Source: Acaryochloris thomasi RCC1774 (GTDB taxonomy: Bacteria > Cyanobacteriota > Cyanobacteriia > Thermosynechococcales > Thermosynechococcaceae). Taken from it: a DNA stretch of 32,000 nt. The translations under genes were made by a program, and so were the position numbers. The notes below the pieces were generated by a model. The model saw only the letters and a list, made by a program, of their open reading frames with translations. It was not told the origin of the DNA and made no database searches. This document shows positions 2,575 to 30,127 of this stretch, one piece after another. The stretch lies in the NCBI RefSeq assembly GCF_003231495.1, contig NZ_PQWO01000002.1, positions 1-32,000 on the forward strand, given 5' to 3'. Positions within the stretch are counted from its first letter, which is position 1. Each line of letters starts with the position of its first letter.

Positions 2575-3588
2575 ATGACTGCCGCTGCCTTAGAGATCAA
2601 GCAATTTATACAGAGTAAAAATCGTCTGTGGAATGCGTTTGCGATCGCATATACAGGGTTAACCTACCTAGGCGGCATTGCTCTTTTTTTGCTGCCGCAG
2701 GTGGGACTGAACCTACTCGGCGTGGTCGTTTTGACCCATAGCCTGTTGGTTTCGGCCTACTTGGCCCATGAGTTGATGCACAGTAATTTGTTCGAGAGTC
2801 GAGCGCTCAATGTGGCCTGGGGCAACGTCATGTTGTGGATCAACGGAGCCATTTATACACCGTTTGATGAGCTGATGCGGCTGCACATTGCCCATCATGT
2901 TGATCGGGTTGATTTCTATCGGTTTGATCTAGAGACCTTTTTAAAGGATTTACCCACGCCTCTACGCCAGATTTTGCTAGGACTGGAGTGGCTCTATATT
3001 CCGTCCCTGGCTTTTTTGCTGCGCTTCCGGGTGATGCTGGCCCCCTTCTGGAACCCTGAACATAAGGAGGAGCGCCTACGCACGGCTTTGTTAATGTTGG
3101 TGCGGGGCAGTCTATTTGCCCTGCTGGGGTTTCTCTCTCCTAAAGCGTTGGGGCTTTACTTTCTTAGTTATGTCGGCATGATCACCGTCCTGCGGTTTAT
3201 GGATGCCTTTCAGCACACCTATGAGGTTTTTGCCCTGGGTGAACCACTGCCGAAACGCGATCGCATCTACGAGCAGGCGAATACTTTCTCAAACGTGGTT
3301 TCCCTGCGTTATCCCTGGCTCAATCTATTGCTACTCAACTTTGGCTACCACAACGCCCATCATGAACTGATGAAATGCCCCTGGCACAGCCTGCCCGAAC
3401 TGGACAAGACCCTATTCACAGGTGCAGAACCCCACTACATTCCCCTGGGGCGTCTGCTCGGAAACTATCATCGCTATCGTGTCTCACGTATTTTCTCCGG
3501 CCAAGGCAGCGCGATCAACGAAACGGGAGAGCCAACGCTGGATCGTTTCTATGGTGGAATTGAGGTCTCATTTCTGCTACCGTCTTAA
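2575..3588 (+). CDS. Membrane fatty-acid-desaturase-family di-iron protein
   Basis: 337 aa with N-terminal transmembrane helices and three histidine boxes: HELMH, HIAHH and HNAHH. Substrate not assignable from sequence. Confidence 0.75.
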   Translation: MTAAALEIKQFIQSKNRLWNAFAIAYTGLTYLGGIALFLLPQVGLNLLGVVVLTHSLLVSAYLAHELMHSNLFESRALNVAWGNVMLWINGAIYTPFDELMRLHIAHHVDRVDFYRFDLETFLKDLPTPLRQILLGLEWLYIPSLAFLLRFRVMLAPFWNPEHKEERLRTALLMLVRGSLFALLGFLSPKALGLYFLSYVGMITVLRFMDAFQHTYEVFALGEPLPKRDRIYEQANTFSNVVSLRYPWLNLLLLNFGYHNAHHELMKCPWHSLPELDKTLFTGAEPHYIPLGRLLGNYHRYRVSRIFSGQGSAINETGEPTLDRFYGGIEVSFLLPS

Positions 3589-3609
3589 AGCTCTTTCCCT
3601 GGCCTACGC

Positions 3610-4506
3610 TTGTCCTCTCCCTTGCCCCAATCTCAAAAATCGACGCTCTCTGGGATTGGATTTGCGATCGCAACCGCTCTTCTTTTTGGTTCTGGCACGC
3701 CCCTCTCCAAACTACTGCTAGATCAAACAGACCCCTGGATGCTGGCGGGCCTTCTATTTCTGGGGGGCGGCTGTGGCCTCCTGCCTATCGTCCTATTGCG
3801 GCACCCATTCCAGAAGCCAGACTATGTTCAATCCGGAGAGTGGCGCTGGGTTTGGAGTTCAACGCTGGCCGGAGGCATCGCGCCTATCCTGTTAATGGTC
3901 GGTCTAAGTACAGCATCGGCTTCATCGGTTGCGCTACTGCTGAATTTTGAAGCCGTGTTCACTGCCATTTTGGCCTGGACCGTTTTCCGAGAACGCTGGC
4001 AGTGGCCGGTCTTTCTGGGCATTATCCCGATCACGGTGGGGGGCATTCTGCTTTCTCAATCCACTGAGGCTAAAGGAGCCGGATGGAGCTGGGGGTCGCT
4101 AGCGGTGCTGGGTACCTGTCTCGCCTGGGCCATCGACAGCAATTTGACGTTCCGAGTGTCTCATCGTGACCCGTTTCAGATTGCCTTGATCAAGAATGGG
4201 GTTGCGGGGATAGTGAACGTTGCGATCGCATCCTTGATTGGCCAGCAATTTCCCGACGGGTCTACGCTCATCCAGATCGGTGGCGTCGGCTTTCTTTGCT
4301 ACGGACTCACCTATTGCTGTTTTGTCCTCGCGCTTCGATGCATTGGTTCCTCACGCACAGCGGCTTTCTTTGCCCTTGCCCCTTTAGTCGGTTCTGCCAT
4401 CGCCGTTGTTGTGTTGCATGAAACGGTGACAGCAGGAGTTGCGATCGCAGCCCTAATCATGACCGGGGGCGCACTGCTCTGTGCATGGGAGCCGCAAGCA
4501 CGATGA
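3610..4506 (+). CDS. EamA/DMT-superfamily transporter
   Basis: 298-aa polytopic membrane protein with about 10 hydrophobic segments arranged as two EamA-like halves. TTG start 22 bp after the desaturase stop; the start codon is uncertain. Confidence 0.7.
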   Translation: MSSPLPQSQKSTLSGIGFAIATALLFGSGTPLSKLLLDQTDPWMLAGLLFLGGGCGLLPIVLLRHPFQKPDYVQSGEWRWVWSSTLAGGIAPILLMVGLSTASASSVALLLNFEAVFTAILAWTVFRERWQWPVFLGIIPITVGGILLSQSTEAKGAGWSWGSLAVLGTCLAWAIDSNLTFRVSHRDPFQIALIKNGVAGIVNVAIASLIGQQFPDGSTLIQIGGVGFLCYGLTYCCFVLALRCIGSSRTAAFFALAPLVGSAIAVVVLHETVTAGVAIAALIMTGGALLCAWEPQAR

Positions 4507-5510: not shown

Positions 5511-5572
5511 TTGACGGTACAAAGAGACGCAGGCTAAACTGTGACCCTTCAGTCACATGACTGTTCGGTCAC
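5511..5572 (+). promoter_or_regulatory. Candidate sigma70-type promoter plus double-palindrome operator upstream of the TetR gene
   Basis: TTGACG (5511-5516), 18 bp spacer, TAAACT (5535-5540). Two abutting 16-mers follow immediately: GTGACCCTTCAGTCAC (5541-5556) and ATGACTGTTCGGTCAC (5557-5572). The ATG is at 5588. Confidence 0.55.
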
Positions 5573-5587
5573 AGCTCTACGCAAGCC

Positions 5588-6289
5588 ATGCCCACCCAAA
5601 CCTTTTTCAATCTTCCGGACAACAAGCGTCAGAAATTCGTTGAGATTGCGATCTCAGAATTCGCGCGTCATGACTACAACAGTGCTTCGATTACCAAAAT
5701 TGTGGCGACGGCAAAAATCGCTAAGGGCAGCGTCTATCAATATTTCAAGGACAAAAAGGGACTCTACCTGTATCTGATTGAGTTTGCTACCGAAGAGAAG
5801 CTGACCTTCTTGAAAAATACAGAGCAACCCGAATCAGCAAATTTTTTCGACTATCTGCGGTGGCTGTTCCACGCCAGCGTTCTCTTCGATTTTGAACACC
5901 CGACGCTGAGTCAGTTGGTCTATCGGGCTAGGTATGGCACGCTGCCGTTTCGAGATCAGGTGCTAGCGCAAACCAAGAAAGCCTCTAGTGGCTATATTGA
6001 GCAACTCGTCGAGCGCGGCATTGCCCAGGGCGATATTGACCGCGATATTGAACCGGATCTCGCAACCTACATGGTCAACACGCTGGCCAGTGAGATCGGA
6101 AGCCTGATTTTCGACCGTTTAGAGATCGATCCACATCGCCTGGCTGAAGAAGGCCCCCTGGCTGACATTGATATGAAGGTAATTGAACAGATTTTTGATG
6201 AGTTGCTTCAAGTTCTCGAGCGAGGGATGGGGCGCAAAACTAAGCCATCAATGAAGCAAGCAAAGGCCCCATCTTCAGCAAAAACCTGA
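5588..6289 (+). CDS. TetR/AcrR-family transcriptional regulator
   Basis: N-terminal TetR HTH (YNSASITKIVATAKIAKGSVYQYFKDKKGLY), an all-helical ligand-binding domain and a lysine-rich tail. Confidence 0.9.
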   Translation: MPTQTFFNLPDNKRQKFVEIAISEFARHDYNSASITKIVATAKIAKGSVYQYFKDKKGLYLYLIEFATEEKLTFLKNTEQPESANFFDYLRWLFHASVLFDFEHPTLSQLVYRARYGTLPFRDQVLAQTKKASSGYIEQLVERGIAQGDIDRDIEPDLATYMVNTLASEIGSLIFDRLEIDPHRLAEEGPLADIDMKVIEQIFDELLQVLERGMGRKTKPSMKQAKAPSSAKT

Positions 6290-6482
6290 GCGCTTCTGAC
6301 CCAAAATTCCCTATAGCCTTTCAGCTCTTTTACGGCATGGGCTAGGTCTTTGGTATTCACCGGACTGATTGTCTAATGTTCAGTCTCTTCTTTGCCATGC
6401 GTGGTGACTTGATGGCCTTATCCCGCGTGGCGTCGCTGCTGGCTGAGGCCACTAAGCGCACGCGAATGCAATTAAGCATGAA

Positions 6483-6543
6483 TTGGCAAACCTAGGTTCA
6501 TTCGCTAGAATGTGACCAGCTGGTCACGTGGCTGAAGGGTCAT
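6483..6543 (+). promoter_or_regulatory. Candidate sigma70-type promoter plus double-palindrome operator upstream of the Coq4-like operon
   Basis: TTGGCA (6483-6488), 17 bp spacer, TAGAAT (6506-6511). A perfect 16-bp palindrome GTGACCAGCTGGTCAC (6512-6527) and then GTGGCTGAAGGGTCAT (6528-6543) follow immediately. The 32-mer closely matches the reverse complement of 5541-5572. Confidence 0.6.
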
Positions 6544-6585
6544 GTCGCCATTTAGCGTTTTAAGTTTCACAAGGTAACGACCATC

Positions 6586-7254
6586 ATGGTTAGCATTAAG
6601 CGCTTCATCAAATCAATCCGGGACTACTACGCTGAAGGTCAGGTCGGAGACATTGCATTTTTAAAAATCAAGCTCTTGGGCCTGAGCGCGACGCCTGAAC
6701 TCTTGGCTCAACTGCAAGACTTGGCAGGCTACGCCCCTGAAATCGATCTCGACGCGCTCAGTCAGCTTCCTAAAGGAACGTTGGGGTACGAGTATGCTCA
6801 GCACATGCACAAGAACGGGATCCTCCCTCTTGTCATCAGCCCCGATTTGCAGATAGAAGCTCAGCAAGCCCCCTTTGCGCTGCGCTATACCACTACCCAC
6901 GATATGTTCCACGTGCTGCTGGGGTTCGATACTAGCTATGCCGGTGAAGTTGGAGTGTTTGCTTTTATGGCTGCTCAAAACTACAGCTCGTTCATCAATG
7001 CAGCTCTCCCTATTATGAGTAAGATTTATCCGCTGATCTTTTGGGGGCAGAGACAGTCAATGATTGCCAATATCCAGGCAGGAAAGGCGTTGGGTGAACA
7101 GGCCAAATGCCTACTGGCTTACCGCATTGAAGATCACTGGGCACGCCCAATTGCCGATATTCGCTCTGAATTAGGGCTGGTTCTTGAAGGGAGCGACTTG
7201 GCTCAGGACATGCAAGACAATCTCTTATACAAAGCGGCAGAAAGTATTGCCTGA
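6586..7254 (+). CDS. Coq4-family protein (paralogue 1)
   Basis: 222 aa. Carries the Coq4 signature HDxxH-x11-E (HDMFHVLLGFDTSYAGE). Alignable over its full length with the next gene. Confidence 0.75.
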   Translation: MVSIKRFIKSIRDYYAEGQVGDIAFLKIKLLGLSATPELLAQLQDLAGYAPEIDLDALSQLPKGTLGYEYAQHMHKNGILPLVISPDLQIEAQQAPFALRYTTTHDMFHVLLGFDTSYAGEVGVFAFMAAQNYSSFINAALPIMSKIYPLIFWGQRQSMIANIQAGKALGEQAKCLLAYRIEDHWARPIADIRSELGLVLEGSDLAQDMQDNLLYKAAESIA

Positions 7255-7324
7255 CATCTCTTCTAATAGATGTTTTCAGCCTAACTGAAGCATCCAAGCT
7301 GTTCAAGCACTGAGGAAAACCGCA

Positions 7325-7990
7325 ATGACCAGTATTAAGCGCTTCATCAAAGCCTATAAAGACTACTTAACGGAAGGAGAGACCGGAGACGCTGCACTCC
7401 TCGAAAGCCAGCTTTATGGATTCGGCACCCATCCTGATCTGCTGAAACAACTGCAGGGGTTAGCAGACTACTATCCCACGATTGATTTAGAGCAACTCCG
7501 TCAACTCCCCAAAGGCACTTTAGGGCATGAATATGCCCAGCACATGCAGGACAACGGAATTCAACCGTTAGAAGTCAGTGATGATCTGAAAGAAGAAGCC
7601 AAGCGTCATCCTTTCGCGCTGCGCTACACCGTCACCCACGATATCTTTCACATTTTGCTAGGGTTTGATACCAGCTATTCTGGTGAAGCTGGCGTATTCG
7701 GGTTTACCGTGGGGCAGAACTATACAAAAACGCTGAATCTAACCTATCCTCTCATTAAGCTAATTCTCGTACTCATTAAGCCGTGGCAAGCGCAGGACAT
7801 CTTGGCCAGCGCCCGCAGAGGTAAAAAACTGGGTGAGCAGGCGGACTGCTTGTTGGCCTATCCGTTTGAAGAAAACTGGACACGCTCCATTACCGATATC
7901 CGAGCTGAGTTAGGGTTAGTTTCAGGAGGCAAACCGTCAAAGCGATCGGCAAGGGAAATTGCGAATGTTCTGCCTAGCGCCGCAGCTTGA
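7325..7990 (+). CDS. Coq4-family protein (paralogue 2)
   Basis: 221 aa. Signature HDIFHILLGFDTSYSGE. Shares blocks with paralogue 1: SIKRFIK, QLPKGTLG-EYAQHM, PFALRYT, LGEQA-CLLAY. Confidence 0.75.
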   Translation: MTSIKRFIKAYKDYLTEGETGDAALLESQLYGFGTHPDLLKQLQGLADYYPTIDLEQLRQLPKGTLGHEYAQHMQDNGIQPLEVSDDLKEEAKRHPFALRYTVTHDIFHILLGFDTSYSGEAGVFGFTVGQNYTKTLNLTYPLIKLILVLIKPWQAQDILASARRGKKLGEQADCLLAYPFEENWTRSITDIRAELGLVSGGKPSKRSAREIANVLPSAAA

Positions 7991-8032: not shown

Positions 8033-8767
8033 ATGCTTGAGTACCGCAATAACCCCACAGACAATATTGTTGAAATCATCGTTGAAGGCCAGCTGACGGA
8101 GGCAGACCTTGACCAGATTATCGCTCAGCTCAAGATTGACCTTGATAAGCACGGCAAGCTCAGGCTACTGGAAGAAATTCGCAGCTTTGAAGGCATCGAC
8201 CCGATCGCACTCTGGAAAGATGCTCAGTTTGGGTTGACCCACGTGGATGACTTTACCCATGCGGCGGTGGTTGCCGAGGCTGAATGGGTACGGACCATTT
8301 CTGCGGCAGCAGACAACATTTTATCGGCTCAGGTAAAAGCCTTCGAACCCTCTCAAATTGAGGCCGCCCGGACCTGGCTGCAGATGGCGCCGGAGTTAGA
8401 TCAGCTATCGGGCATGGAGTACAGGAGCAACGCTGAAAATAACGTTATCGAGATTATTGTCGAGGGCAAGATTACGGTGGCAGACTTTGATCGAATTGTG
8501 CCTTTGATCAAGACTGACTTGGCGAAGCATGGCAAGGTGAAAGTCCTAGAAGAAATCCGCAGCTTTGAGGGCATGGACCCGATGGCGCTGTGGCAAGATT
8601 TGCAGCAGGCCTACATGGTCAAAGACATCACCCATATCGCATTGGTGGCCGATGCCCAGTGGATGCGGACCATTGCGGAAGCCGTGAGCGCGATTTTCCC
8701 GGCTGAGATTAAGGCGTTTGAGCGATCGCAAATAGAAGCCGCGCGGACGTGGCTCGCAAATGCCTGA
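8033..8767 (+). CDS. Tandem-domain STAS/SpoIIAA-like (STAS_2/SEC14-type, DUF3478-like) protein
   Basis: 244 aa built of two homologous halves, about 8033-8392 and 8414-8764. Each half contains EYRxN..N-IEIIVEG, KHGK, LEEIRSFEGxDPxALW and VKAFExSQIEAARTWL. AAGGAG RBS at 8021-8026. Confidence 0.65.
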   Translation: MLEYRNNPTDNIVEIIVEGQLTEADLDQIIAQLKIDLDKHGKLRLLEEIRSFEGIDPIALWKDAQFGLTHVDDFTHAAVVAEAEWVRTISAAADNILSAQVKAFEPSQIEAARTWLQMAPELDQLSGMEYRSNAENNVIEIIVEGKITVADFDRIVPLIKTDLAKHGKVKVLEEIRSFEGMDPMALWQDLQQAYMVKDITHIALVADAQWMRTIAEAVSAIFPAEIKAFERSQIEAARTWLANA

Positions 8768-12273: not shown

Positions 12274-14301
12274 CTACGATCTCTGGCTTGGTAACCAGAT
12301 TTTTTCTAAAACCGATAGGAATGAAGGATAAAGCGCACGACTCCCATATGAACTCAGGTGGTCCCCATCATAAAATAGAGGTTGATTCCCATCAAATGCG
12401 GAGCACTCGTCAGCTTTACACAGGATAGGGAATGGATCCCAGATAAAGACATTACTGGAATGACTCGCTAACTTGTTCAACTTATCCATCACTGGCTTTC
12501 TATAGCCTAAAAGAAAGTCACGCTCAGTCGTAAATGCAGAAGAACAAACTGGATTTGATGCATTAAACCAGTCAGAGCAACGAAATGGAGGAGAGGAGAA
12601 CACTGGCTTGGGCGCATCAATGACAACAGTCATTGAGAGGTCACTAAATTTTTTGACAATCTCTTTGGCTTCAGTCAGGGCTGTTTCTCGATCACTGATA
12701 GCTTTTTTTTCTGACTGCTCAGCCATCACATCCTCGATGGGTAAAGGACCATGAAAGTTACTCCCAATGCGATCAATTTTCAGGGCGGCTAGAAACAAAA
12801 TATCGCCAGGCGAAGCTAGTGTCTCGATTGTAGAGAGAGCGTCTTCAATATGCAGTGAGCAGGAGCGCTCCCCAGACAAAGCAGGTTTTCTTAAACTAAA
12901 ACCGCACCCCCCCTTTTGATAAATATGAACATCAACACCCTGATCCTTCGACAACTGCCGAAGCATAGGCCGGTAGGCTCCGGCATGTGAATCTCCAAGC
13001 ACAAACAGCTTGCGATTATTAAAGCCTTTATCTTCATTGTTTATCTGACCCGTATAGGACGAGTAAGGATTCCATACGTCTTGGTTCTGGGATACTACAC
13101 TAAAACTTAAATATTTTTGACCTCGAAAGGCCAGTCTAGTGAATCCATAGGATAGAGCGACTGTCACAATCCCTGCGACAACCATTTTCCAGTTCGGTAA
13201 GCTAGCCGCGTATTTGTTTTTTCTAGCAGGTATTTCAACATAGTAATAAGAAATATTGGCTAACAAAAATGTCAAGACAGTAGCGCTGGCTATTGTAATA
13301 GCAGACTCAAAGCCAACCGTCCATCTAAAAAATACGAAGATAGGCCAATGCCATAGATATAGAGAATATGATTTTTTCCCGATGTCTACCATTCGCCCGT
13401 CTTCAAGCAGTCTTTGTATAATCGGTTTTTGGCAAACACCATCAAGGATGCCGGAAATCAAAAATAGTGTTCCAAGAACAGATGGGAGTGCCCATGGGAA
13501 AGGGAACAGTGTTGAATCAGAGAAGAAGAATGCACCTCCAGCTAGAGCAATCCCGATCAGCAAGCATAAATTCTTGGCTTTGCTTGACTGAGGAATAAGT
13601 ATATTCCTTGAATGCAAATCAAATAGCAAAGCACCACAGGATAATTCCCAAAAACGACTAGGAAGTAAATAGAACGCATTGTCTGGTGAAGCTGATGTCT
13701 CATAAGCTGAATAAGCTAGAGATATGCCTAACAGAGCTGGTAACAGAAAATTAACGATGACTCCAAAAATATCGCTTCTTTTCTTGTGCTTTGCCCAAAC
13801 AAAAAATAGCAGCGGGAAAATGACGTAAAACTGTTCCTCAATGCCTAAGCTCCAAGTATGAGAAAATGGGTTCAGTTCAGTTCCAGGTGAGAAATATGCG
13901 TTGCTATTCCATGCAAGAGAGAAATTACTGATACCCAAAAAGGCTGAAAGCGCAACGTTTGTGTTTGCCCTCGCTATTGGTGATGCTGGGACGAACAATA
14001 TAGAAAAAATGCTAACTAAAACAAGGCATACAAGTAACGGAGGGAAAATTCTTTTTACCCTCCTTGAATAAAAGCTAACAATAAAGTCTGAAAAGTTCAG
14101 CGTAGAGTGTCTGATTAAAGAGCCACAAACGACATATCCTGAGATGACGAAAAATATATCCACTCCAGAAAATCCACCTGGCAGGTATGCAGGAGAAATA
14201 TGAAAGATAATCACTGCCAAGACGGCTAAGGCTCTTAATCCATCGATTCCTCTGATATAGGTGGTTTTTTTGCTAGCACTATTCTTGACTGAATGGTTCA
14301 T
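12274..14301 (-). CDS. OafA/YrhL-like acyltransferase-3 (AT3) fused to a C-terminal SGNH domain
   Basis: 675 aa. AT3 N-terminal motif GIDGLRALAVLAVIIFH and about 10-11 TM helices, then an SGNH block I (FVLGDSHAG) and a DxxH-type block (YDGDHLS). The gene is markedly AT-rich compared with its neighbours. Confidence 0.85.
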   Translation of the reverse strand: MNHSVKNSASKKTTYIRGIDGLRALAVLAVIIFHISPAYLPGGFSGVDIFFVISGYVVCGSLIRHSTLNFSDFIVSFYSRRVKRIFPPLLVCLVLVSIFSILFVPASPIARANTNVALSAFLGISNFSLAWNSNAYFSPGTELNPFSHTWSLGIEEQFYVIFPLLFFVWAKHKKRSDIFGVIVNFLLPALLGISLAYSAYETSASPDNAFYLLPSRFWELSCGALLFDLHSRNILIPQSSKAKNLCLLIGIALAGGAFFFSDSTLFPFPWALPSVLGTLFLISGILDGVCQKPIIQRLLEDGRMVDIGKKSYSLYLWHWPIFVFFRWTVGFESAITIASATVLTFLLANISYYYVEIPARKNKYAASLPNWKMVVAGIVTVALSYGFTRLAFRGQKYLSFSVVSQNQDVWNPYSSYTGQINNEDKGFNNRKLFVLGDSHAGAYRPMLRQLSKDQGVDVHIYQKGGCGFSLRKPALSGERSCSLHIEDALSTIETLASPGDILFLAALKIDRIGSNFHGPLPIEDVMAEQSEKKAISDRETALTEAKEIVKKFSDLSMTVVIDAPKPVFSSPPFRCSDWFNASNPVCSSAFTTERDFLLGYRKPVMDKLNKLASHSSNVFIWDPFPILCKADECSAFDGNQPLFYDGDHLSSYGSRALYPSFLSVLEKIWLPSQRS

Positions 14302-15707: not shown

Positions 15708-18059
15708 CTAGAGCCGCGCTTGCTGGGTTACCTTCGCCACTTGCTGGGGGGCGTTCATCTGCGTAAATAACTTGATGGCCTGATCAAAGCTGTCTTGACT
15801 TTGATCAGCACGCTGTTGCAGTTGATGGGTGACCCCAAGCTGGAACCAAGCTTCAGCGAGATCGCACTGGGCGCCGATGGTTTGCAAAAGCTCTAAAGCC
15901 TGCTGTTGTTGCCTTAGTGCCGCCGTTAGCTCTCCCTGCCTACGATTAATATCTGCGAGGCCGATGAGCGTTTTGGCCTGTATCTGAGTGTAGCTACTAG
16001 ATTCTACATGGGTTAGCACTTGCTTAAAGATGAGTCTAGCTTGCTCAAAGCATTCCACATTCACGTAGGTCTGACCCAAGATTTGCATGAAGTAGGCTGA
16101 ACGCCCTGTAGCTTGAGACATTTGACGGTAGGCAGTGTCAGCCAGCGATTTCGCCTCTTGCAACTGACCCTGGTAGGATTTTGCCAGTGCTAGACATAAA
16201 GATGCTTTTTCGGCCCAGCGATGGTGATCGGTATGGGTTGCCGCTAGCGCAGTTCCTTCTGCGGAGGCGGGCCGATCGTAGACCATTGCAACCAGTGCTT
16301 CAAACCAACCCGCCGCTGTTTCTAGCTCCCACAGATCAATGTGATAAAGTCCCAGACTGAGCAGTGCATCTACCTCCAGCATTCTCAGGTAATAACGCTG
16401 ATGGGATGTGAGCGACTCCGCAGCTTGATATTGTTGAATTGCCTGTTCTCTCGCCTGCTTTTGGCAATCAATCGCCGCGTGAATCTTACCTGCTGTCCAG
16501 TAGAAATCACCGAGGATATTGTACAGCTCACTAAAGCTAGAATCAGAGCCAATACGCTCTAGAATTACGGGAATTTCAGTGAGCAAAGATTGGTGTAGCC
16601 CGAACCGATACAGCGTACTGCCCAAAGACAGATACTGATTCCATTGATTCGTGCGGCTGTTGAGAATCACCTGTGCGGCTGCGGCATAGTCGTCAATCGC
16701 GACGTAGTGGTAGTAAGCCTCTAGGGCTTGCAAAGCGTCCTGCGGTTGGGTAATTGTATCCACGCTATCAGTCCAGTAGGCTGCCGCCGCTTGGTTTGTG
16801 GCTTGCCATTGATCGCTGTTTCTCAGTCGGGCAATGGCCTCAGCTCGCAGGACTGGATGGAGCCAATATTGTCCTTTGTGATAGTCTGCCAGCGAGCGAT
16901 TACGGAGAGAAACCATCGCTTGCCGACGATTAGCCTCAGGAACATCCCACAAAAGCGTCGTTAGGGCTGCTGTTGGCACAGTGGCTGGATTCTGATAGCG
17001 ATAGCACCCCAAACGACAAAACAAGCGATAGGACTCAGGGGCCTGATGCTGCAGTCGGTTGACTTGGTTGGCGACCAGGTTTTTGAGGTCAGCAGCCACC
17101 AATAAATCATTCCGATGGTCTCGCCAGTAGGATTTGAGGTCGCCGTCATAGTCTTCTGAGATGGTGCCGCGCAGGACTCGCATGGCTTTGGCGTTGCCGC
17201 CGTAGGCGTGGTGCATTTCCTGGAGACTGGCCGTCTCAATTTCAAGCTCACCCATCTCGAAGAACTGTTGCCAAGCCAGATAGCTGAGTCCCGGTAGGCG
17301 ATAGTGGGTGACGTTGAGGCTGGCTTCAGAGATGCGATCGCAACTCGTCATCAAAATAACCGTCTGCCCCTGGCCTTCTGTGAGGACTCGCAGCAGCTCT
17401 ACGTAATGGCGGTGAGGTTCAATAAAGCGTCCCTGATGATCTAAAGCAGGTTCTAGATTATCGACCAACACTCCCACCCGCCGCTGCCGCAGATGTCGCC
17501 GCAGTCGCCCCAGCGAAATGCCAAGCTCTAGTCCCGGCTCATCATTAAAATCTCGCTGCAGCCATTCTTCAACCACCCGTTCAGCCGAAGTAATGTTGGT
17601 CGTTTCCTTGGCCATCAAAAGCTCCAGCACCAGATCGAATCCCTGACTATGGAGATATTTCTGAGCCAGGGCCGTTTTGCCAACGCCCCCTTCTCCCTGC
17701 AGAACGATAGCTTTTTGCCCTTTTCCTACCAGAGAATTGAGGCATTCGATGGCTTCGACTCGCCCCACCAATCCCCTGAGCGTTGGACGCTCTACGCTAG
17801 GTTTGAAATCTACAGGGATATGGCGGGGCAAAATAATGCCCAAGTTTTTCTTGGTGACTTTTTCACCCAGTAGCTCAGACAGCAGCTTCCATAGAGCAGA
17901 GCCGACATCTTTGGCGTGGCCTTCAGTGCAACCGTAGGCATCGGCAATCTCAAGATAGGTCTGGTCGCAGCGCTCTAGGATTAGGAGTTGCAGCTCAGAG
18001 ATGCGATCGCCTGTCTTGCGGAAAACTAAATCGTCCAGCCAAGCCGTATTTGCAATCAT
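15708..18059 (-). CDS. STAND NTPase: N-terminal HTH-like module + NB-ARC-like ATPase + C-terminal TPR array
   Basis: 783 aa. The N-terminal ~75 aa (SELQLLILER..YLEIADAYGCTEGHAKDVGSALWKLLSELLGEKVTKKNL) resemble the sigma70-r4/LuxR-like module common at the N-termini of cyanobacterial STAND/WD40 proteins. P-loop GEGGVGKT (17673-17696), Walker B VGVLVDNLE, GxP-like GGNAKAM. About 400 aa of TPR-like helical repeats follow. Confidence 0.8.
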   Translation of the reverse strand: MIANTAWLDDLVFRKTGDRISELQLLILERCDQTYLEIADAYGCTEGHAKDVGSALWKLLSELLGEKVTKKNLGIILPRHIPVDFKPSVERPTLRGLVGRVEAIECLNSLVGKGQKAIVLQGEGGVGKTALAQKYLHSQGFDLVLELLMAKETTNITSAERVVEEWLQRDFNDEPGLELGISLGRLRRHLRQRRVGVLVDNLEPALDHQGRFIEPHRHYVELLRVLTEGQGQTVILMTSCDRISEASLNVTHYRLPGLSYLAWQQFFEMGELEIETASLQEMHHAYGGNAKAMRVLRGTISEDYDGDLKSYWRDHRNDLLVAADLKNLVANQVNRLQHQAPESYRLFCRLGCYRYQNPATVPTAALTTLLWDVPEANRRQAMVSLRNRSLADYHKGQYWLHPVLRAEAIARLRNSDQWQATNQAAAAYWTDSVDTITQPQDALQALEAYYHYVAIDDYAAAAQVILNSRTNQWNQYLSLGSTLYRFGLHQSLLTEIPVILERIGSDSSFSELYNILGDFYWTAGKIHAAIDCQKQAREQAIQQYQAAESLTSHQRYYLRMLEVDALLSLGLYHIDLWELETAAGWFEALVAMVYDRPASAEGTALAATHTDHHRWAEKASLCLALAKSYQGQLQEAKSLADTAYRQMSQATGRSAYFMQILGQTYVNVECFEQARLIFKQVLTHVESSSYTQIQAKTLIGLADINRRQGELTAALRQQQQALELLQTIGAQCDLAEAWFQLGVTHQLQQRADQSQDSFDQAIKLFTQMNAPQQVAKVTQQARL

Positions 18060-18149
18060 GACTCACCCAGAGCTCCGCCTCACTCTCTAGTCTACCCATC
18101 TACATTGATCGTTCCCTCCAGTCCATTTGTTCACGGCGAACGGGTGCAG

Positions 18150-18788
18150 CTAAGCTTTAATCTGCTGCTGTACCCACTGGCGAAGGCCAATCTCAGCAGC
18201 GACTTCATCTAGTAATGCTGCTTCTAGAAACTGATATAAATCTTGCTTTGCAACAGCAGGGAAGGTCGGGGAGCGATCGCACTCAACGTACTTGCCGTCC
18301 GTTAATTGCAAGACTTTCCACTCACGCCCATTGAACCGCCAAAATTCAGGCACTCCGAGGCTGGCGTAAAGAGTGTCTTTATTCAAGTCGGTATGGGTAA
18401 TATCGACCTCTACAACCAGATCAGGGGGGGGATCAACTTCTAAGTTAACTTCGTGATCTGCAACCAGGGCGTAGTTCTGAATGTAGTATTCGTTGTCGGG
18501 TTCAGCGCTTTTGAGTAAGTCTTCTCGATCTAGGGTCGTCGAACCCATGGTCTTGATTTTCATTCCCATCTCAACCACCAGAACTCTGATAAAGAGTTCG
18601 ATCAGGCGGGCAGACCGCTCATGGCCTTCGAGGGGCATGGTGATTTCTAAGACTCCGTTGTCGTAGGTGAAGCGAGCGCGAGTTCTCTCTGTCAGCAACG
18701 TCTGAATTTGCTTGAACTCATGCCAATCAAGGTTGCGAAAGGTGAGACGCTTTTCTCCAACGAGTTTGGGGGGTGGCTCTAGTAACAT
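18150..18788 (-). CDS. Uma2-family (DUF820) PD-(D/E)xK putative endonuclease
   Basis: Typical Uma2 layout: F..Y..G.LEI.MP, HE, EPD..Y and the core PPDLVVEVDITHTD...LYASLGVPEFWRF. The ATG at 18788 is preferred over the GTG at 18791. The gene ends 90 bp upstream of the STAND gene on the same strand. Confidence 0.8.
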   Translation of the reverse strand: MLLEPPPKLVGEKRLTFRNLDWHEFKQIQTLLTERTRARFTYDNGVLEITMPLEGHERSARLIELFIRVLVVEMGMKIKTMGSTTLDREDLLKSAEPDNEYYIQNYALVADHEVNLEVDPPPDLVVEVDITHTDLNKDTLYASLGVPEFWRFNGREWKVLQLTDGKYVECDRSPTFPAVAKQDLYQFLEAALLDEVAAEIGLRQWVQQQIKA

Positions 18789-18897
18789 CACAATTGCTGA
18801 GCGAATTGATCAAGCACTCATTGTTCATACCTATAGTGATACTAACGTTGAGCATGCTGCTGAGGTCACTGATGACTGTGTTATCTCTGAGGCAACG

Positions 18898-27684: not shown

Positions 27685-28362
27685 ATGGCGAAATCTGAGA
27701 GTCCAGTTCGAGTTTTATTGGTGGATGATGAAGCAATTGTCCGCTATGGGCTTAAAGCTGTTGCTCGATGTACTGCGGAGATAGAGATCGTTGGGGAGGC
27801 TTGCGATGGTGAAGATGCGATCGCAAAAGCTAAATCACTTCAGCCTGACGTCGTTCTCATGGATATCAGTATGCCTTTGATGAATGGTGTTGCGGCAACT
27901 GGACACATTTGTCGAGCACTGCCAGGCGTGAAGATTATGATTCTAACGACACATGATGATGTTCAACATTTAACAGAGGCGATGCAGCAGGGCGCAGTGG
28001 GATACTTGCTCAAGAATACGCCGCCTGAAGATTTTGTCCAAAGTATCCAAAGTGCTTATAAAGGCTACATGCAGTTTGGCCCTGGTTTAGGTCAAAAGCT
28101 CCTGCAGCAACGCCAGCCCGTGACCCGTCAGACACAGCTTGATAAGCTAGTGGATGTAACGCCTCGAGAGCAGGATGTGTTGAAGCTAATTTGCGAGGGG
28201 GCGAGCAACCGAGAGATTGCTCAAGCACTTCACATCACTGAAAAGACAGTCAAAAATCATGTCAGCAGTATTTTGAGCCAGGTTGGTGTGAAGTCGCGGA
28301 CGCAGCTTGCGATTTGGGTTAATAACGGCGGCGCTCACTCTTCTCAGCTTTTATCTGTCTGA
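27685..28362 (+). CDS. NarL/FixJ-family response regulator (REC + LuxR HTH)
   Basis: REC domain (LLVDDEAIVR, VVLMDISMP, ILTTHDD) and a C-terminal LuxR-type HTH (LTPREQDVLKLICEGASNREIAQALHITEKTVKNHVSSIL). Confidence 0.9.
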   Translation: MAKSESPVRVLLVDDEAIVRYGLKAVARCTAEIEIVGEACDGEDAIAKAKSLQPDVVLMDISMPLMNGVAATGHICRALPGVKIMILTTHDDVQHLTEAMQQGAVGYLLKNTPPEDFVQSIQSAYKGYMQFGPGLGQKLLQQRQPVTRQTQLDKLVDVTPREQDVLKLICEGASNREIAQALHITEKTVKNHVSSILSQVGVKSRTQLAIWVNNGGAHSSQLLSV

Positions 28363-28417
28363 TGATCGTTGTGCTTGTGACCCGCTCCATATTAGGAAGC
28401 AACTTTAAACACCGATA

Positions 28418-30127
28418 ATGATTCGCTGGAAGCTAGGTGCTAAATTCAGTTTGTTTTTGGTCATCATTTTCTTGCTCGGTAGCTGTTTGACCGTTTTCAC
28501 ACTCTCGCAACAGCTCAATCAGCAGGCTGAAGACGTTGTTAAAGAAAGGGCAGAGCTACTGCTAACCGCGATGCAGGCGGCCCGTAACTACACTCAAAAC
28601 AACATTCAACCGATTCTTGAAAGCGATACAGAAAGAGAGAACGACTTTGTGCAGGAGAGTATCCCCAACTTTGCGGCTCGAACTATTTTCTCTGATTTTC
28701 GAGATCAGGACTCTAACTTTCAAAACTTTTCCTATAAAGAAGCAACGCCTAATCCAACTAATTTGGATGACCTTGCTGACTCGCTGGAAGTGGATCTCTT
28801 CAACCAATTGACTCAGCTAGCGCCAGAGTCCTCCGACGAAGTTTTATCTGGCTATCGAACACTAGAGGGGCAAAAGCTATTTTACTTGGCGCGGCCTCTG
28901 TTCATGAATGATGTTCGTTGCCTAGACTGTCACGGCGATCCTCGCGTAGCACCGAAGTCTTTACTGAAGATGTATGGCAGTCAAAATGGCTTTGGATGGA
29001 AGTTAAATGAAGTCGTGGCGACCCAACTTATTTATGTGCCTGCGGACAATATCTTCAGCCAAGGACGCCGGAATTTGTTGTCTGTTACAAAAACGCTAGC
29101 GGCCATTTTCGGAGCGCTCTTCTTGGTTATTAATCTGTTGTTATGGAAGACGGTAACGCAGCCTCTTGAGATTTTGACCAAGGTTGCCAAGCAGATTAGC
29201 AGTTGCTCTCTCAACCAACAGCCCAGTCACGATTCGCAAAATCTAGAAGCTTTGACGATGCGAAAAGATGAGCCTGGACAACTGGCGCGTGCTTTTCAAT
29301 ATATGGTGACTGTGCTGAGCCAGCGCGAGCAGGATCTCCAGCTGGCTGTTCAAGAACGCACGCTGTCGCTAGAAGAAGAAATGCATGAGCGTCAGACAGC
29401 GCAGGAGGCGCTACAAACCTATGCCCATGCTATAAACCATGACCTACGGAATTTGGCTATGGGTATTTCTAGTCTGGTTCAGGGGCTGCTGTCCTACTCG
29501 TTTACGGGGCGTTATTCAGAGGGCAAGCAGAATCGACTGGAGCCTTCTGTCATTGAGATAGAGCCGGAGGCATTGACGATGATCAAAAAAAGTTGCGATC
29601 GCCAGCTCAATCTGATGAATTCTCTGATGACAGCGGAGTCTTCAAATCTTTGGCAAACGGCCCTAAAACCTGAGTCCGTCAACCTTCGCCAGCTTGCAAA
29701 AGAACTGCAGGTCGCTTGTGATTATAGGCTCACAGACTCGGCATCGACTTTAAACAATCAGATTGCAGCTGATTTACCCAACATTTATGCAGACTCTCAC
29801 CAGTTGAGACGGGTCTTCGAGAACTTAATCGATAATGCACTCAAATATAATCCTGAGGGAATCACGATTTTGCTCCATGCTGTGGTTCAGAGTGATGCGA
29901 TGATTCGATGCACGGTCAAAGATAACGGCGTTGGCATCGATTCTCAGAGAAGTCAGATGCTCTTCGGAATGTATGCCCGTGGTCAGGGTGATTTTCAGGT
30001 CAAGGGATATGGCCTCGGTCTCTATATTTGCCGAAAGATCATAGAGGCCCACGGCGGAGCCATCGGTGTCGAAGCGCCTGTTGGCGGCGGAGCTGAATTT
30101 TGGTTCACGCTACCCTGTTGCCAATAA
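28418..30127 (+). CDS. Sensor histidine kinase with periplasmic DUF3365/Tll0287-like CXXCH haem-c domain
   Basis: TM1 (aa ~10-30), a periplasmic domain carrying CLDCH (aa 168-172; 28919-28933), TM2 (LAAIFGALFLVINLLLW), a HAMP-like linker and a coiled coil. H-box AHAINHDLRN. HATPase_c boxes N (DNALKYN), G1 (DNGVGI) and G2 (GYGLGL). Confidence 0.85.
   Translation: MIRWKLGAKFSLFLVIIFLLGSCLTVFTLSQQLNQQAEDVVKERAELLLTAMQAARNYTQNNIQPILESDTERENDFVQESIPNFAARTIFSDFRDQDSNFQNFSYKEATPNPTNLDDLADSLEVDLFNQLTQLAPESSDEVLSGYRTLEGQKLFYLARPLFMNDVRCLDCHGDPRVAPKSLLKMYGSQNGFGWKLNEVVATQLIYVPADNIFSQGRRNLLSVTKTLAAIFGALFLVINLLLWKTVTQPLEILTKVAKQISSCSLNQQPSHDSQNLEALTMRKDEPGQLARAFQYMVTVLSQREQDLQLAVQERTLSLEEEMHERQTAQEALQTYAHAINHDLRNLAMGISSLVQGLLSYSFTGRYSEGKQNRLEPSVIEIEPEALTMIKKSCDRQLNLMNSLMTAESSNLWQTALKPESVNLRQLAKELQVACDYRLTDSASTLNNQIAADLPNIYADSHQLRRVFENLIDNALKYNPEGITILLHAVVQSDAMIRCTVKDNGVGIDSQRSQMLFGMYARGQGDFQVKGYGLGLYICRKIIEAHGGAIGVEAPVGGGAEFWFTLPCCQ

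Follow-up and report, generated by a model that had tools for sequence, protein, structure and literature searches.

The Coq4-family gene pair and its control region

The stretch of DNA analysed here, referred to as the window, is a 32-kb segment from the cyanobacterium Acaryochloris thomasi RCC1774. It carries two adjacent genes for proteins of the Coq4 family, coqA and coqB, which are followed by a gene for a SpoIIAA-like protein and preceded by a gene for a TetR-family repressor. CoqA is 100% identical to C1752_00579 of this strain; the first-pass annotation, made from the letters alone, had rightly taken the host for a cyanobacterium. The features of the locus are listed below by position (nt, nucleotides; aa, amino acids).

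5511..5540 (+): promoter-like site of tetR found by consensus scan, TTGACG, an 18 nt spacer and TAAACT, with the same geometry as at coqA
5541..5572 (no strand assigned): tetR operator doublet, GTGACCCTTCAGTCAC and ATGACTGTTCGGTCAC, two abutting 16-bp palindromes
5588..6289 (+): TetR-family repressor C1752_00577, 233 aa, with TetR_N and TetR_C_5-like domains, upstream of the pair on the same strand
6483..6511 (+): promoter-like site of the coqA operon, TTGGCA, a 17 nt spacer and TAGAAT, with 10 of 12 consensus matches
6512..6543 (no strand assigned): coqA operator doublet, GTGACCAGCTGGTCAC (a perfect palindrome) and GTGGCTGAAGGGTCAT, two abutting 16-bp palindromes
6586..7254 (+): CoqA, clade-A Coq4-family protein C1752_00579, 222 aa, PF05019 at 64.3 bits
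6898..6948 (+): metal-ligand motif of CoqA, HDMFHVLLGFDTSYAGE, residues 105-121 (H105, D106, H109, E121)
7325..7990 (+): CoqB, clade-B Coq4-family protein C1752_00580, 221 aa, PF05019 at 59.2 bits
7637..7687 (+): metal-ligand motif of CoqB, HDIFHILLGFDTSYSGE, residues 105-121
8033..8767 (+): two-domain SpoIIAA-like protein, a putative carrier of nonpolar molecules, 244 aa, with two PF11964 domains; last gene of the operon

The two genes encode the proteins of about 220 aa that had been described for this locus, each with its HDxxH-x11-E motif exactly as quoted then. The family assignment made from that motif also holds in the Pfam profile, as both scores listed above exceed the PF05019 gathering score of 22.9 bits (E 1.3e-17 for CoqA and 4.6e-16 for CoqB), the aligned part of the profile being positions 72-217 of 221. 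CoqA and CoqB are 55% identical over 220 aa (E 1e-86). When compared with sequences in the PDB, CoqA matched 6E12 (E 5e-15) and 3MSQ (E 1e-14), and the AlphaFold2 (AF2) model of CoqA, with a predicted local distance difference test (pLDDT) value of 90.7, had the same two entries as its only significant fold matches (E 7e-10 to 1e-8; template modelling (TM) scores 0.58-0.63). Profile, motif and fold all place CoqA and CoqB in the Coq4 family.

The two matching structures, Alr8543 (6E12) and Npun02000094 (3MSQ), are likewise cyanobacterial proteins of similar length with the same motif. Nevertheless, at ~25-35% identity and TM ~0.6 they are distant from the pair and belong to a separate clade that is single-copy and often plasmid-borne. 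Alr8543 had been described in the first-pass annotation as a structure with a bound isoprenoid phosphate, which no longer stands: the entry concerned (3KB4, with geranylgeranyl monophosphate) is now obsolete, and in its replacement, 6E12, the ligand was re-modelled as oleic acid, with Mg2+ (PMC9774615). A hydrophobic tunnel lies beside the binuclear metal site of Alr8543 (PMC9774615, PMC10680789).

Eukaryotic COQ4 has the PF05019 domain and the HDxxH-x11-E motif in common with the pair, as well as a fold predicted to be all-helical and to contain a lipid tunnel. In vitro it acts as a Zn-dependent C1 decarboxylase (PMC7615680); in vivo it is required for O2-dependent oxidative decarboxylation, an activity that depends on the HDxxH...E residues (PMC10680789). 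The earlier description of Coq4 as acting in ubiquinone ring modification was therefore right about the coenzyme Q (CoQ) pathway but too loose about the reaction (PMC7615680, PMC10680789). In contrast to COQ4, the proteins of A. thomasi differ in the N-terminal third, their host makes no ubiquinone, they are two tandem paralogues predicted to be repressed by TetR, and they have no COQ or Ubi partner genes.

Upstream of the pair, the repressor matches TetR_N (PF00440, 37.1 bits) and TetR_C_5-like (PF21256, 46 bits), and its closest solved structure is the uncharacterised protein 3NRG (E 9e-55). The palindromes follow the consensus RTGACY-N4-RGTCAY, and both doublets start at the base right after the -10 hexamer. 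Within the operon, coqB starts 70 bp after coqA with GAGGA, a Shine-Dalgarno-like sequence, ahead of its ATG, while the SpoIIAA-like gene starts 42 bp after coqB behind AAGGAG; neither start is preceded by an operator. From this layout it is inferred that TetR binds DNA at these sites and is inducible, and that it is probably autoregulated and represses one coqA-coqB-spoIIAA-like transcript. The abutting palindromes suggest two TetR dimers per doublet. QacR also places two dimers on its operator.

The GenBank locus tags jump from C1752_00577 (TetR) to 00579 (CoqA), which means that a gene 00578 was annotated in the 296-bp gap between them (6290-6585). As this gap contains only open reading frames (ORFs) of 39-50 aa and holds the coqA promoter and operator, the annotation is probably spurious.

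Clades, operators and gene content of related loci

A search of a protein collection returned 218 homologues, many of them two per contig, and a scan of one genome per species (185,579 species) yielded 170 confirmed stretches, the best 79 loci being retained for analysis. Neighbouring genes in related loci, cited by L numbers where needed, were annotated by ORF calling together with Pfam and NCBIfam. All 79 retained loci are cyanobacterial or from unclassified metagenome-assembled genomes. HDxxH-x11-E is retained in 92 of the 94 Coq4 homologues from the loci, and the ligand residues are invariant in an alignment of 83 sequences.

The tree of the 94 Coq4 ORFs has three groups. Clade A comprises CoqA and every first tandem gene and clade B comprises CoqB and every second one, while clade C, the larger group, is single-copy and 45-52% identical to CoqA. 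Seven further polar residues are invariant and common to all three clades (H73, R100, D115, Q131, Y133, E182 and W185). Clades A and B are cleanly split at three positions only, one of which is a charge swap (K27 in A, E27 in B).

Loci of the A/B type number 24 with the window included, a patchy distribution (about 24 of the 79 best loci). In 12 of them an A gene is directly followed by a B gene, with a gap of 37-70 bp in 11 of these 12 tandem pairs; seven loci have A only and four have B only, some of them on truncated contigs and some with remnants of the missing copy. The A/B pair is an old, ordered and conserved duplication, not a recent local one, and the conservation that the first-pass annotation put up for testing is seen in the A-then-B order across cyanobacteria.

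Operator sites were counted in the 388 kb of A/B-type loci, the window included, as intergenic matches with at most one mismatch within 300 bp of a gene. Clade-A coq4 genes are preceded by 29 such sites and TetR orthologues by 23, with a further four upstream of SpoIIAA-like genes, two upstream of ATPase genes of ATP-binding cassette (ABC) transporters and one upstream of a membrane-fusion protein (MFP) gene. The majority are doublets at 16-bp spacing, and those of tetR lie 19-64 bp upstream of the TetR orthologues in 14 of the 24 loci (the 23 sites above). Positional conservation of the doublets was seen in L001-L023 and L082-L085, and doublets also precede independently found TetR orthologues of 60%, 50% and 38% identity. 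The clade-C loci (980 kb) gave eight scattered matches; seven fall within ORFs, and no coq4 or tetR promoter has one. For the dedicated TetR switch suggested for the pair, operators were thus identified in the window as well as in some 20 related loci.

Two doublets, L082:9523-9554 and L083:9522-9553, lie just downstream of a resistance-nodulation-division (RND) gene and are not followed by any called gene. A small gene missed by the annotation may lie behind them, or they may be left over from a coq4 or SpoIIAA-like promoter that was lost.

In most related loci the orthologous TetR gene is followed by genes for an HlyD-type MFP and an AcrB-type RND permease (PF00873, 583 bits) and then by the coq4 pair. 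Among the 24 A/B loci, TetR orthologues occur in 14, RND genes in 13, orthologues of the SpoIIAA-like gene in 12 and cytochrome P450 (P450) genes in five. The P450 genes, one or two per locus, are CYP107/PksS-like, with CYP107/BioI/PksS-like matches as well. In two loci a MacB-type ABC/FtsX/HlyD set, its ATPase gene preceded by an operator site, stands between the RND pump and the coq4 pair. TetR orthologues were also seen with the pump alone and, in a further arrangement, with the pump, a SpoIIAA-like gene and two P450 genes but no Coq4; MFP and RND genes also stand beside the orthologous TetR in L082-L084. Since TetR orthologues occur with the pump but without Coq4, the pump is taken to be the core of the regulon and Coq4A/B an optional module. 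We hold this regulon architecture with high confidence; a TetR-RND regulon of cyanobacteria is thereby defined whose accessory modules are unusual.

The repressor resembles those of the QacR/AcrR type in its helix-turn-helix and TetR_C_5-like ligand domain, its apparently autoregulated promoter, the palindromic operators overlapping the promoter and the MFP-RND pump adjoining it in relatives. It differs from them in that non-transport genes (the Coq4 pair, the SpoIIAA-like gene and P450 genes) appear to be controlled as well, and in that the window has no pump. Alr8543, unlike the A/B pair, has no TetR, pump or SpoIIAA-like context. A search of plasmids found distant Alr8543-type homologues only, and the neighbourhood of Alr8543 itself was uninformative.

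The SpoIIAA-like protein matches PF11964 at 172.8 bits over two stretches and is weakly similar to 2Q3L (E 1.2e-4) and 2OOK (E 3.2e-4). From their crystal structures, these Shewanella proteins were proposed to carry nonpolar molecules in the manner of CRAL-TRIO proteins, with the ligand in a switchable cavity (PMC2954212). Its likeness to these Sfri0576-like proteins thus lies in its two PF11964 domains and in the structural matches, whereas the tandem arrangement, with one to four copies in relatives, sets it apart and the similarity is weak (E ~1e-4). In L008, L017 and L084 a SpoIIAA-like gene located apart from coq4 carries its own operator doublet.

Several peculiarities of single loci were noted. 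The number of PF11964 domains per protein varies between one, two, three and four among the gene of the window (8033-8767) and those at L007:10736-11095, L011:13805-14917 and L008:16375-17865. At L019:3007-4497, an MFP/HlyD N-terminus and a Coq4 C-terminus are joined in one ORF of 496 aa, apparently through a deletion that took out the RND gene along with the 5' portion of coqA, and the set that remains there is TetR, the fusion, CoqB and the SpoIIAA-like gene. On plasmid pNOS3756_1 of Nostoc sp. NIES-3756 (L081, 5132-6534), a distant Alr8543-type Coq4 is divergently paired with a different TetR/AcrR regulator, and this locus lacks the RTGACY-N4-RGTCAY motif, which points to more than one origin of TetR control over Coq4 homologues. 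A candidate UbiH/COQ6-like partner at L008:14975-16165 was rejected as a general partner, as only a single locus carries it and its closer resemblance is to monooxygenases of the Tet(X) type. For other ORFs of the related clusters, such as L017:9309-9875 and L008:8604-9521, Pfam and NCBIfam returned nothing useful.

Possible function of the pair and competing explanations

The explanation preferred here, which we give an even chance of being right as a whole, is that coqA-coqB-spoIIAA-like is a ligand-inducible operon for lipophilic compounds. TetR would bind as two dimers to the doublets right after the -10 hexamers of its own promoter and that of coqA, and would be released by a hydrophobic ligand. 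CoqA and CoqB, as metal-dependent enzymes of the Coq4 fold, would then take up a lipophilic carboxylic acid into a hydrophobic tunnel and, by analogy with COQ4, decarboxylate it, possibly oxidatively, or otherwise modify it. A fatty acid and a prenylated compound of the hydroxybenzoate type are candidate substrates. Movement of the nonpolar substrate or product at the membrane would fall to the SpoIIAA-like protein, and in relatives the P450s would hydroxylate the acid and the pump export it. The operon would thus serve, under certain conditions, to handle or detoxify a lipophilic compound that acts on membranes, as opposed to making plastoquinone constitutively.

The specific chemistry within this scheme, decarboxylation of a lipophilic carboxylate, is put forward tentatively, being carried over from COQ4. 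It is likewise possible rather than probable that Coq4A/B is a metal-dependent, perhaps O2-dependent decarboxylase outside quinone biosynthesis and forms the enzymatic arm of a TetR regulon with CRAL-TRIO-like carriers, P450s and an RND pump. If this were true, it would amount to a previously unrecognised system for membrane-lipid or xenobiotic detoxification in cyanobacteria and to a second physiological role for the Coq4 fold. What the locus presents is a known fold in a new regulatory setting and probably in a new physiological one.

That COQ4 is an enzyme was not recognised until 2023-24. The bacterial Coq4 homologues are small and soluble, two of them having been crystallised. A repressor-controlled Coq4 pair with a readable operator offers a way in, because the ligand of the TetR should indicate the class of substrate. 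Literature searches found no description of the A/B pair, of its TetR or operator, or of a Coq4 protein together with TetR and efflux.

Several observations weigh against the proposed lipophile-handling operon. The 32-kb window holds neither a pump (MFP or RND) nor a P450, so the locus is read as a pump-less derivative of the regulon and not as an efflux operon, and the link to efflux rests on orthology of the TetR and its operator. The promoter and terminator scan of the window was not above chance, and only the promoter geometry was used from it. Operator-like matches with up to three mismatches were not significantly enriched across the whole window (15 against 8.5 +/- 3.1). For these two reasons the significance assigned to the operators rests on their position and comparative conservation. 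The pocket geometry of CoqA may differ from that of 6E12, given a TM of ~0.6 between model and structure. Loci with A only or B only indicate that a heteromer is not obligatory, although some of their contigs are truncated; of the conserved heteromeric pair suggested in the first-pass annotation, the strict A-then-B order is compatible with a complex but does not establish an obligate one. The substrate could be either a prenylated phenolic acid or a fatty acid, and the literature contains no experimental datum for any cyanobacterial Coq4 homologue.

Coq4 was long regarded as a scaffold, and CoqA and CoqB might correspondingly be non-catalytic, only sequestering a hydrophobic ligand or handing it over to the pump, the P450s or the membrane. 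Such a role is consistent with the lipid bound in the crystals of Alr8543 (PMC9774615), with the putative lipid carrier encoded in the same operon (PMC2954212) and with DarK, a remote COQ4-like protein from a Streptomyces sesterterpene cluster for which only an 'auxiliary' phenotype is reported (PMC13625510) and which provides the sole clue to function among bacterial COQ4-like proteins. Nevertheless, the four metal ligands and the further polar residues are nearly fully conserved in the three clades, which favours catalysis over plain binding, and metal-site mutants of COQ4 lose activity although the protein is not destabilised (PMC7615680, PMC10680789). Lipid binding by itself is regarded as unlikely.

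The substrates of the same regulon might also be free fatty acids, in which case the operon would be a stress module whose Coq4A/B proteins decarboxylate the acid or modify it in some other way, whose SpoIIAA-like protein carries it and whose pump, in relatives, exports it. Oleic acid is modelled at the metal site of 6E12, but it may be an artefact of crystallisation or expression, the same density having formerly been interpreted as geranylgeranyl monophosphate (PMC9774615). The known free-fatty-acid exporters of cyanobacteria are RND pumps (PMC10114076), and the P450s of the regulon are CYP107/BioI/PksS-like. Weak secondary matches of the TetR to FadR-type fatty-acid regulators point the same way, although the similarity, at 43 bits, is far below the family cut-off of 200. 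Moreover, none of the proteins with a Coq4 fold is known to decarboxylate fatty acids, and a fatty-acid module is judged quite improbable.

A role in quinone synthesis was examined through gene context. The plastoquinone pathway (PlqC, A, D, X and H) needs decarboxylation of a prenyl-hydroxybenzoate, the reaction type of COQ4, and uses the UbiD/UbiX-type PlqD/X together with the flavin hydroxylase PlqH (PMC12998194). Some cyanobacterial lineages are without PlqD/X and some also without PlqH, and an oxidative decarboxylase has been raised as a possibility (PMC12998194). CoqA and CoqB could therefore be imagined to decarboxylate 3-solanesyl-4-hydroxybenzoate, perhaps oxidatively, bypassing or backing up PlqD/PlqX and possibly PlqH in a conditional or alternative synthesis of plastoquinone or another prenylquinone, as COQ4 performs this type of reaction in eukaryotic CoQ synthesis (PMC10680789, PMC7615680). 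The A/B pair bears on the question of alternative decarboxylation or hydroxylation routes in cyanobacterial plastoquinone synthesis.

However, no Ubi, Coq or Plq gene adjoins the A/B pair in the window or in the 23 related loci; by context, the pair is not associated with a quinone-biosynthesis gene set. It is also patchy where the Plq genes are near-universal in Cyanobacteriia, and the TetR that appears to repress it has an efflux pump as its conserved regulon. A housekeeping role in plastoquinone synthesis is without support here, and the conditional or alternative route is considered a long shot for the pair. The undescribed prenyl-lipid or quinone function proposed in the first-pass annotation therefore stands insofar as none is described in the literature, whereas the context points to an efflux regulon (MFP-RND, SpoIIAA-like, P450s) with no quinone gene.

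Clade C presents a different neighbourhood. It adjoins a CYP120-like P450 in 21 loci (L024-L079), and a gene for 4-hydroxybenzoate polyprenyltransferase (TIGR01474, above cut-off) and ppx are found 2-4 kb away from it in about 11 filamentous cyanobacteria, for example at L029:9980-12040 and L029:13060-13950. This proximity would favour a quinone-related function, but the genes are on opposite strands, the arrangement is confined to related filamentous genomes and it does not extend to clades A and B. From these positions, an alternative plastoquinone decarboxylase may be more plausible for clade C than for the A/B pair.

The phylogeny excludes that the pair arose incidentally, by a recent duplication in tandem, and lacks a joint function. 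Duplicates of this kind are common and few positions discriminate the clades of CoqA and CoqB, but the two proteins share only 55% identity and belong to separate clades that span several cyanobacterial orders with a fixed gene order.

Other genes of the window

The other genes of the window are housekeeping or unrelated. The region 2575-4506 (+), which lies upstream of the TetR locus, encodes a fatty-acid desaturase and an EamA transporter; as no operator precedes them, they are probably outside the regulon. An acyltransferase of 675 aa with AT3 and SGNH domains at 12274-14301 (-) lies in a stretch of low GC content (0.41-0.46, compared with ~0.51 elsewhere) and may have been horizontally acquired. 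At 15708-18791 (-), a 783-aa NB-ARC/TPR protein of the STAND type adjoins a putative endonuclease of the Uma2 family. Further downstream, 27685-30127 (+) encodes a LuxR-type response regulator and, after it, a histidine kinase whose sensor domain is Tll0287-like.

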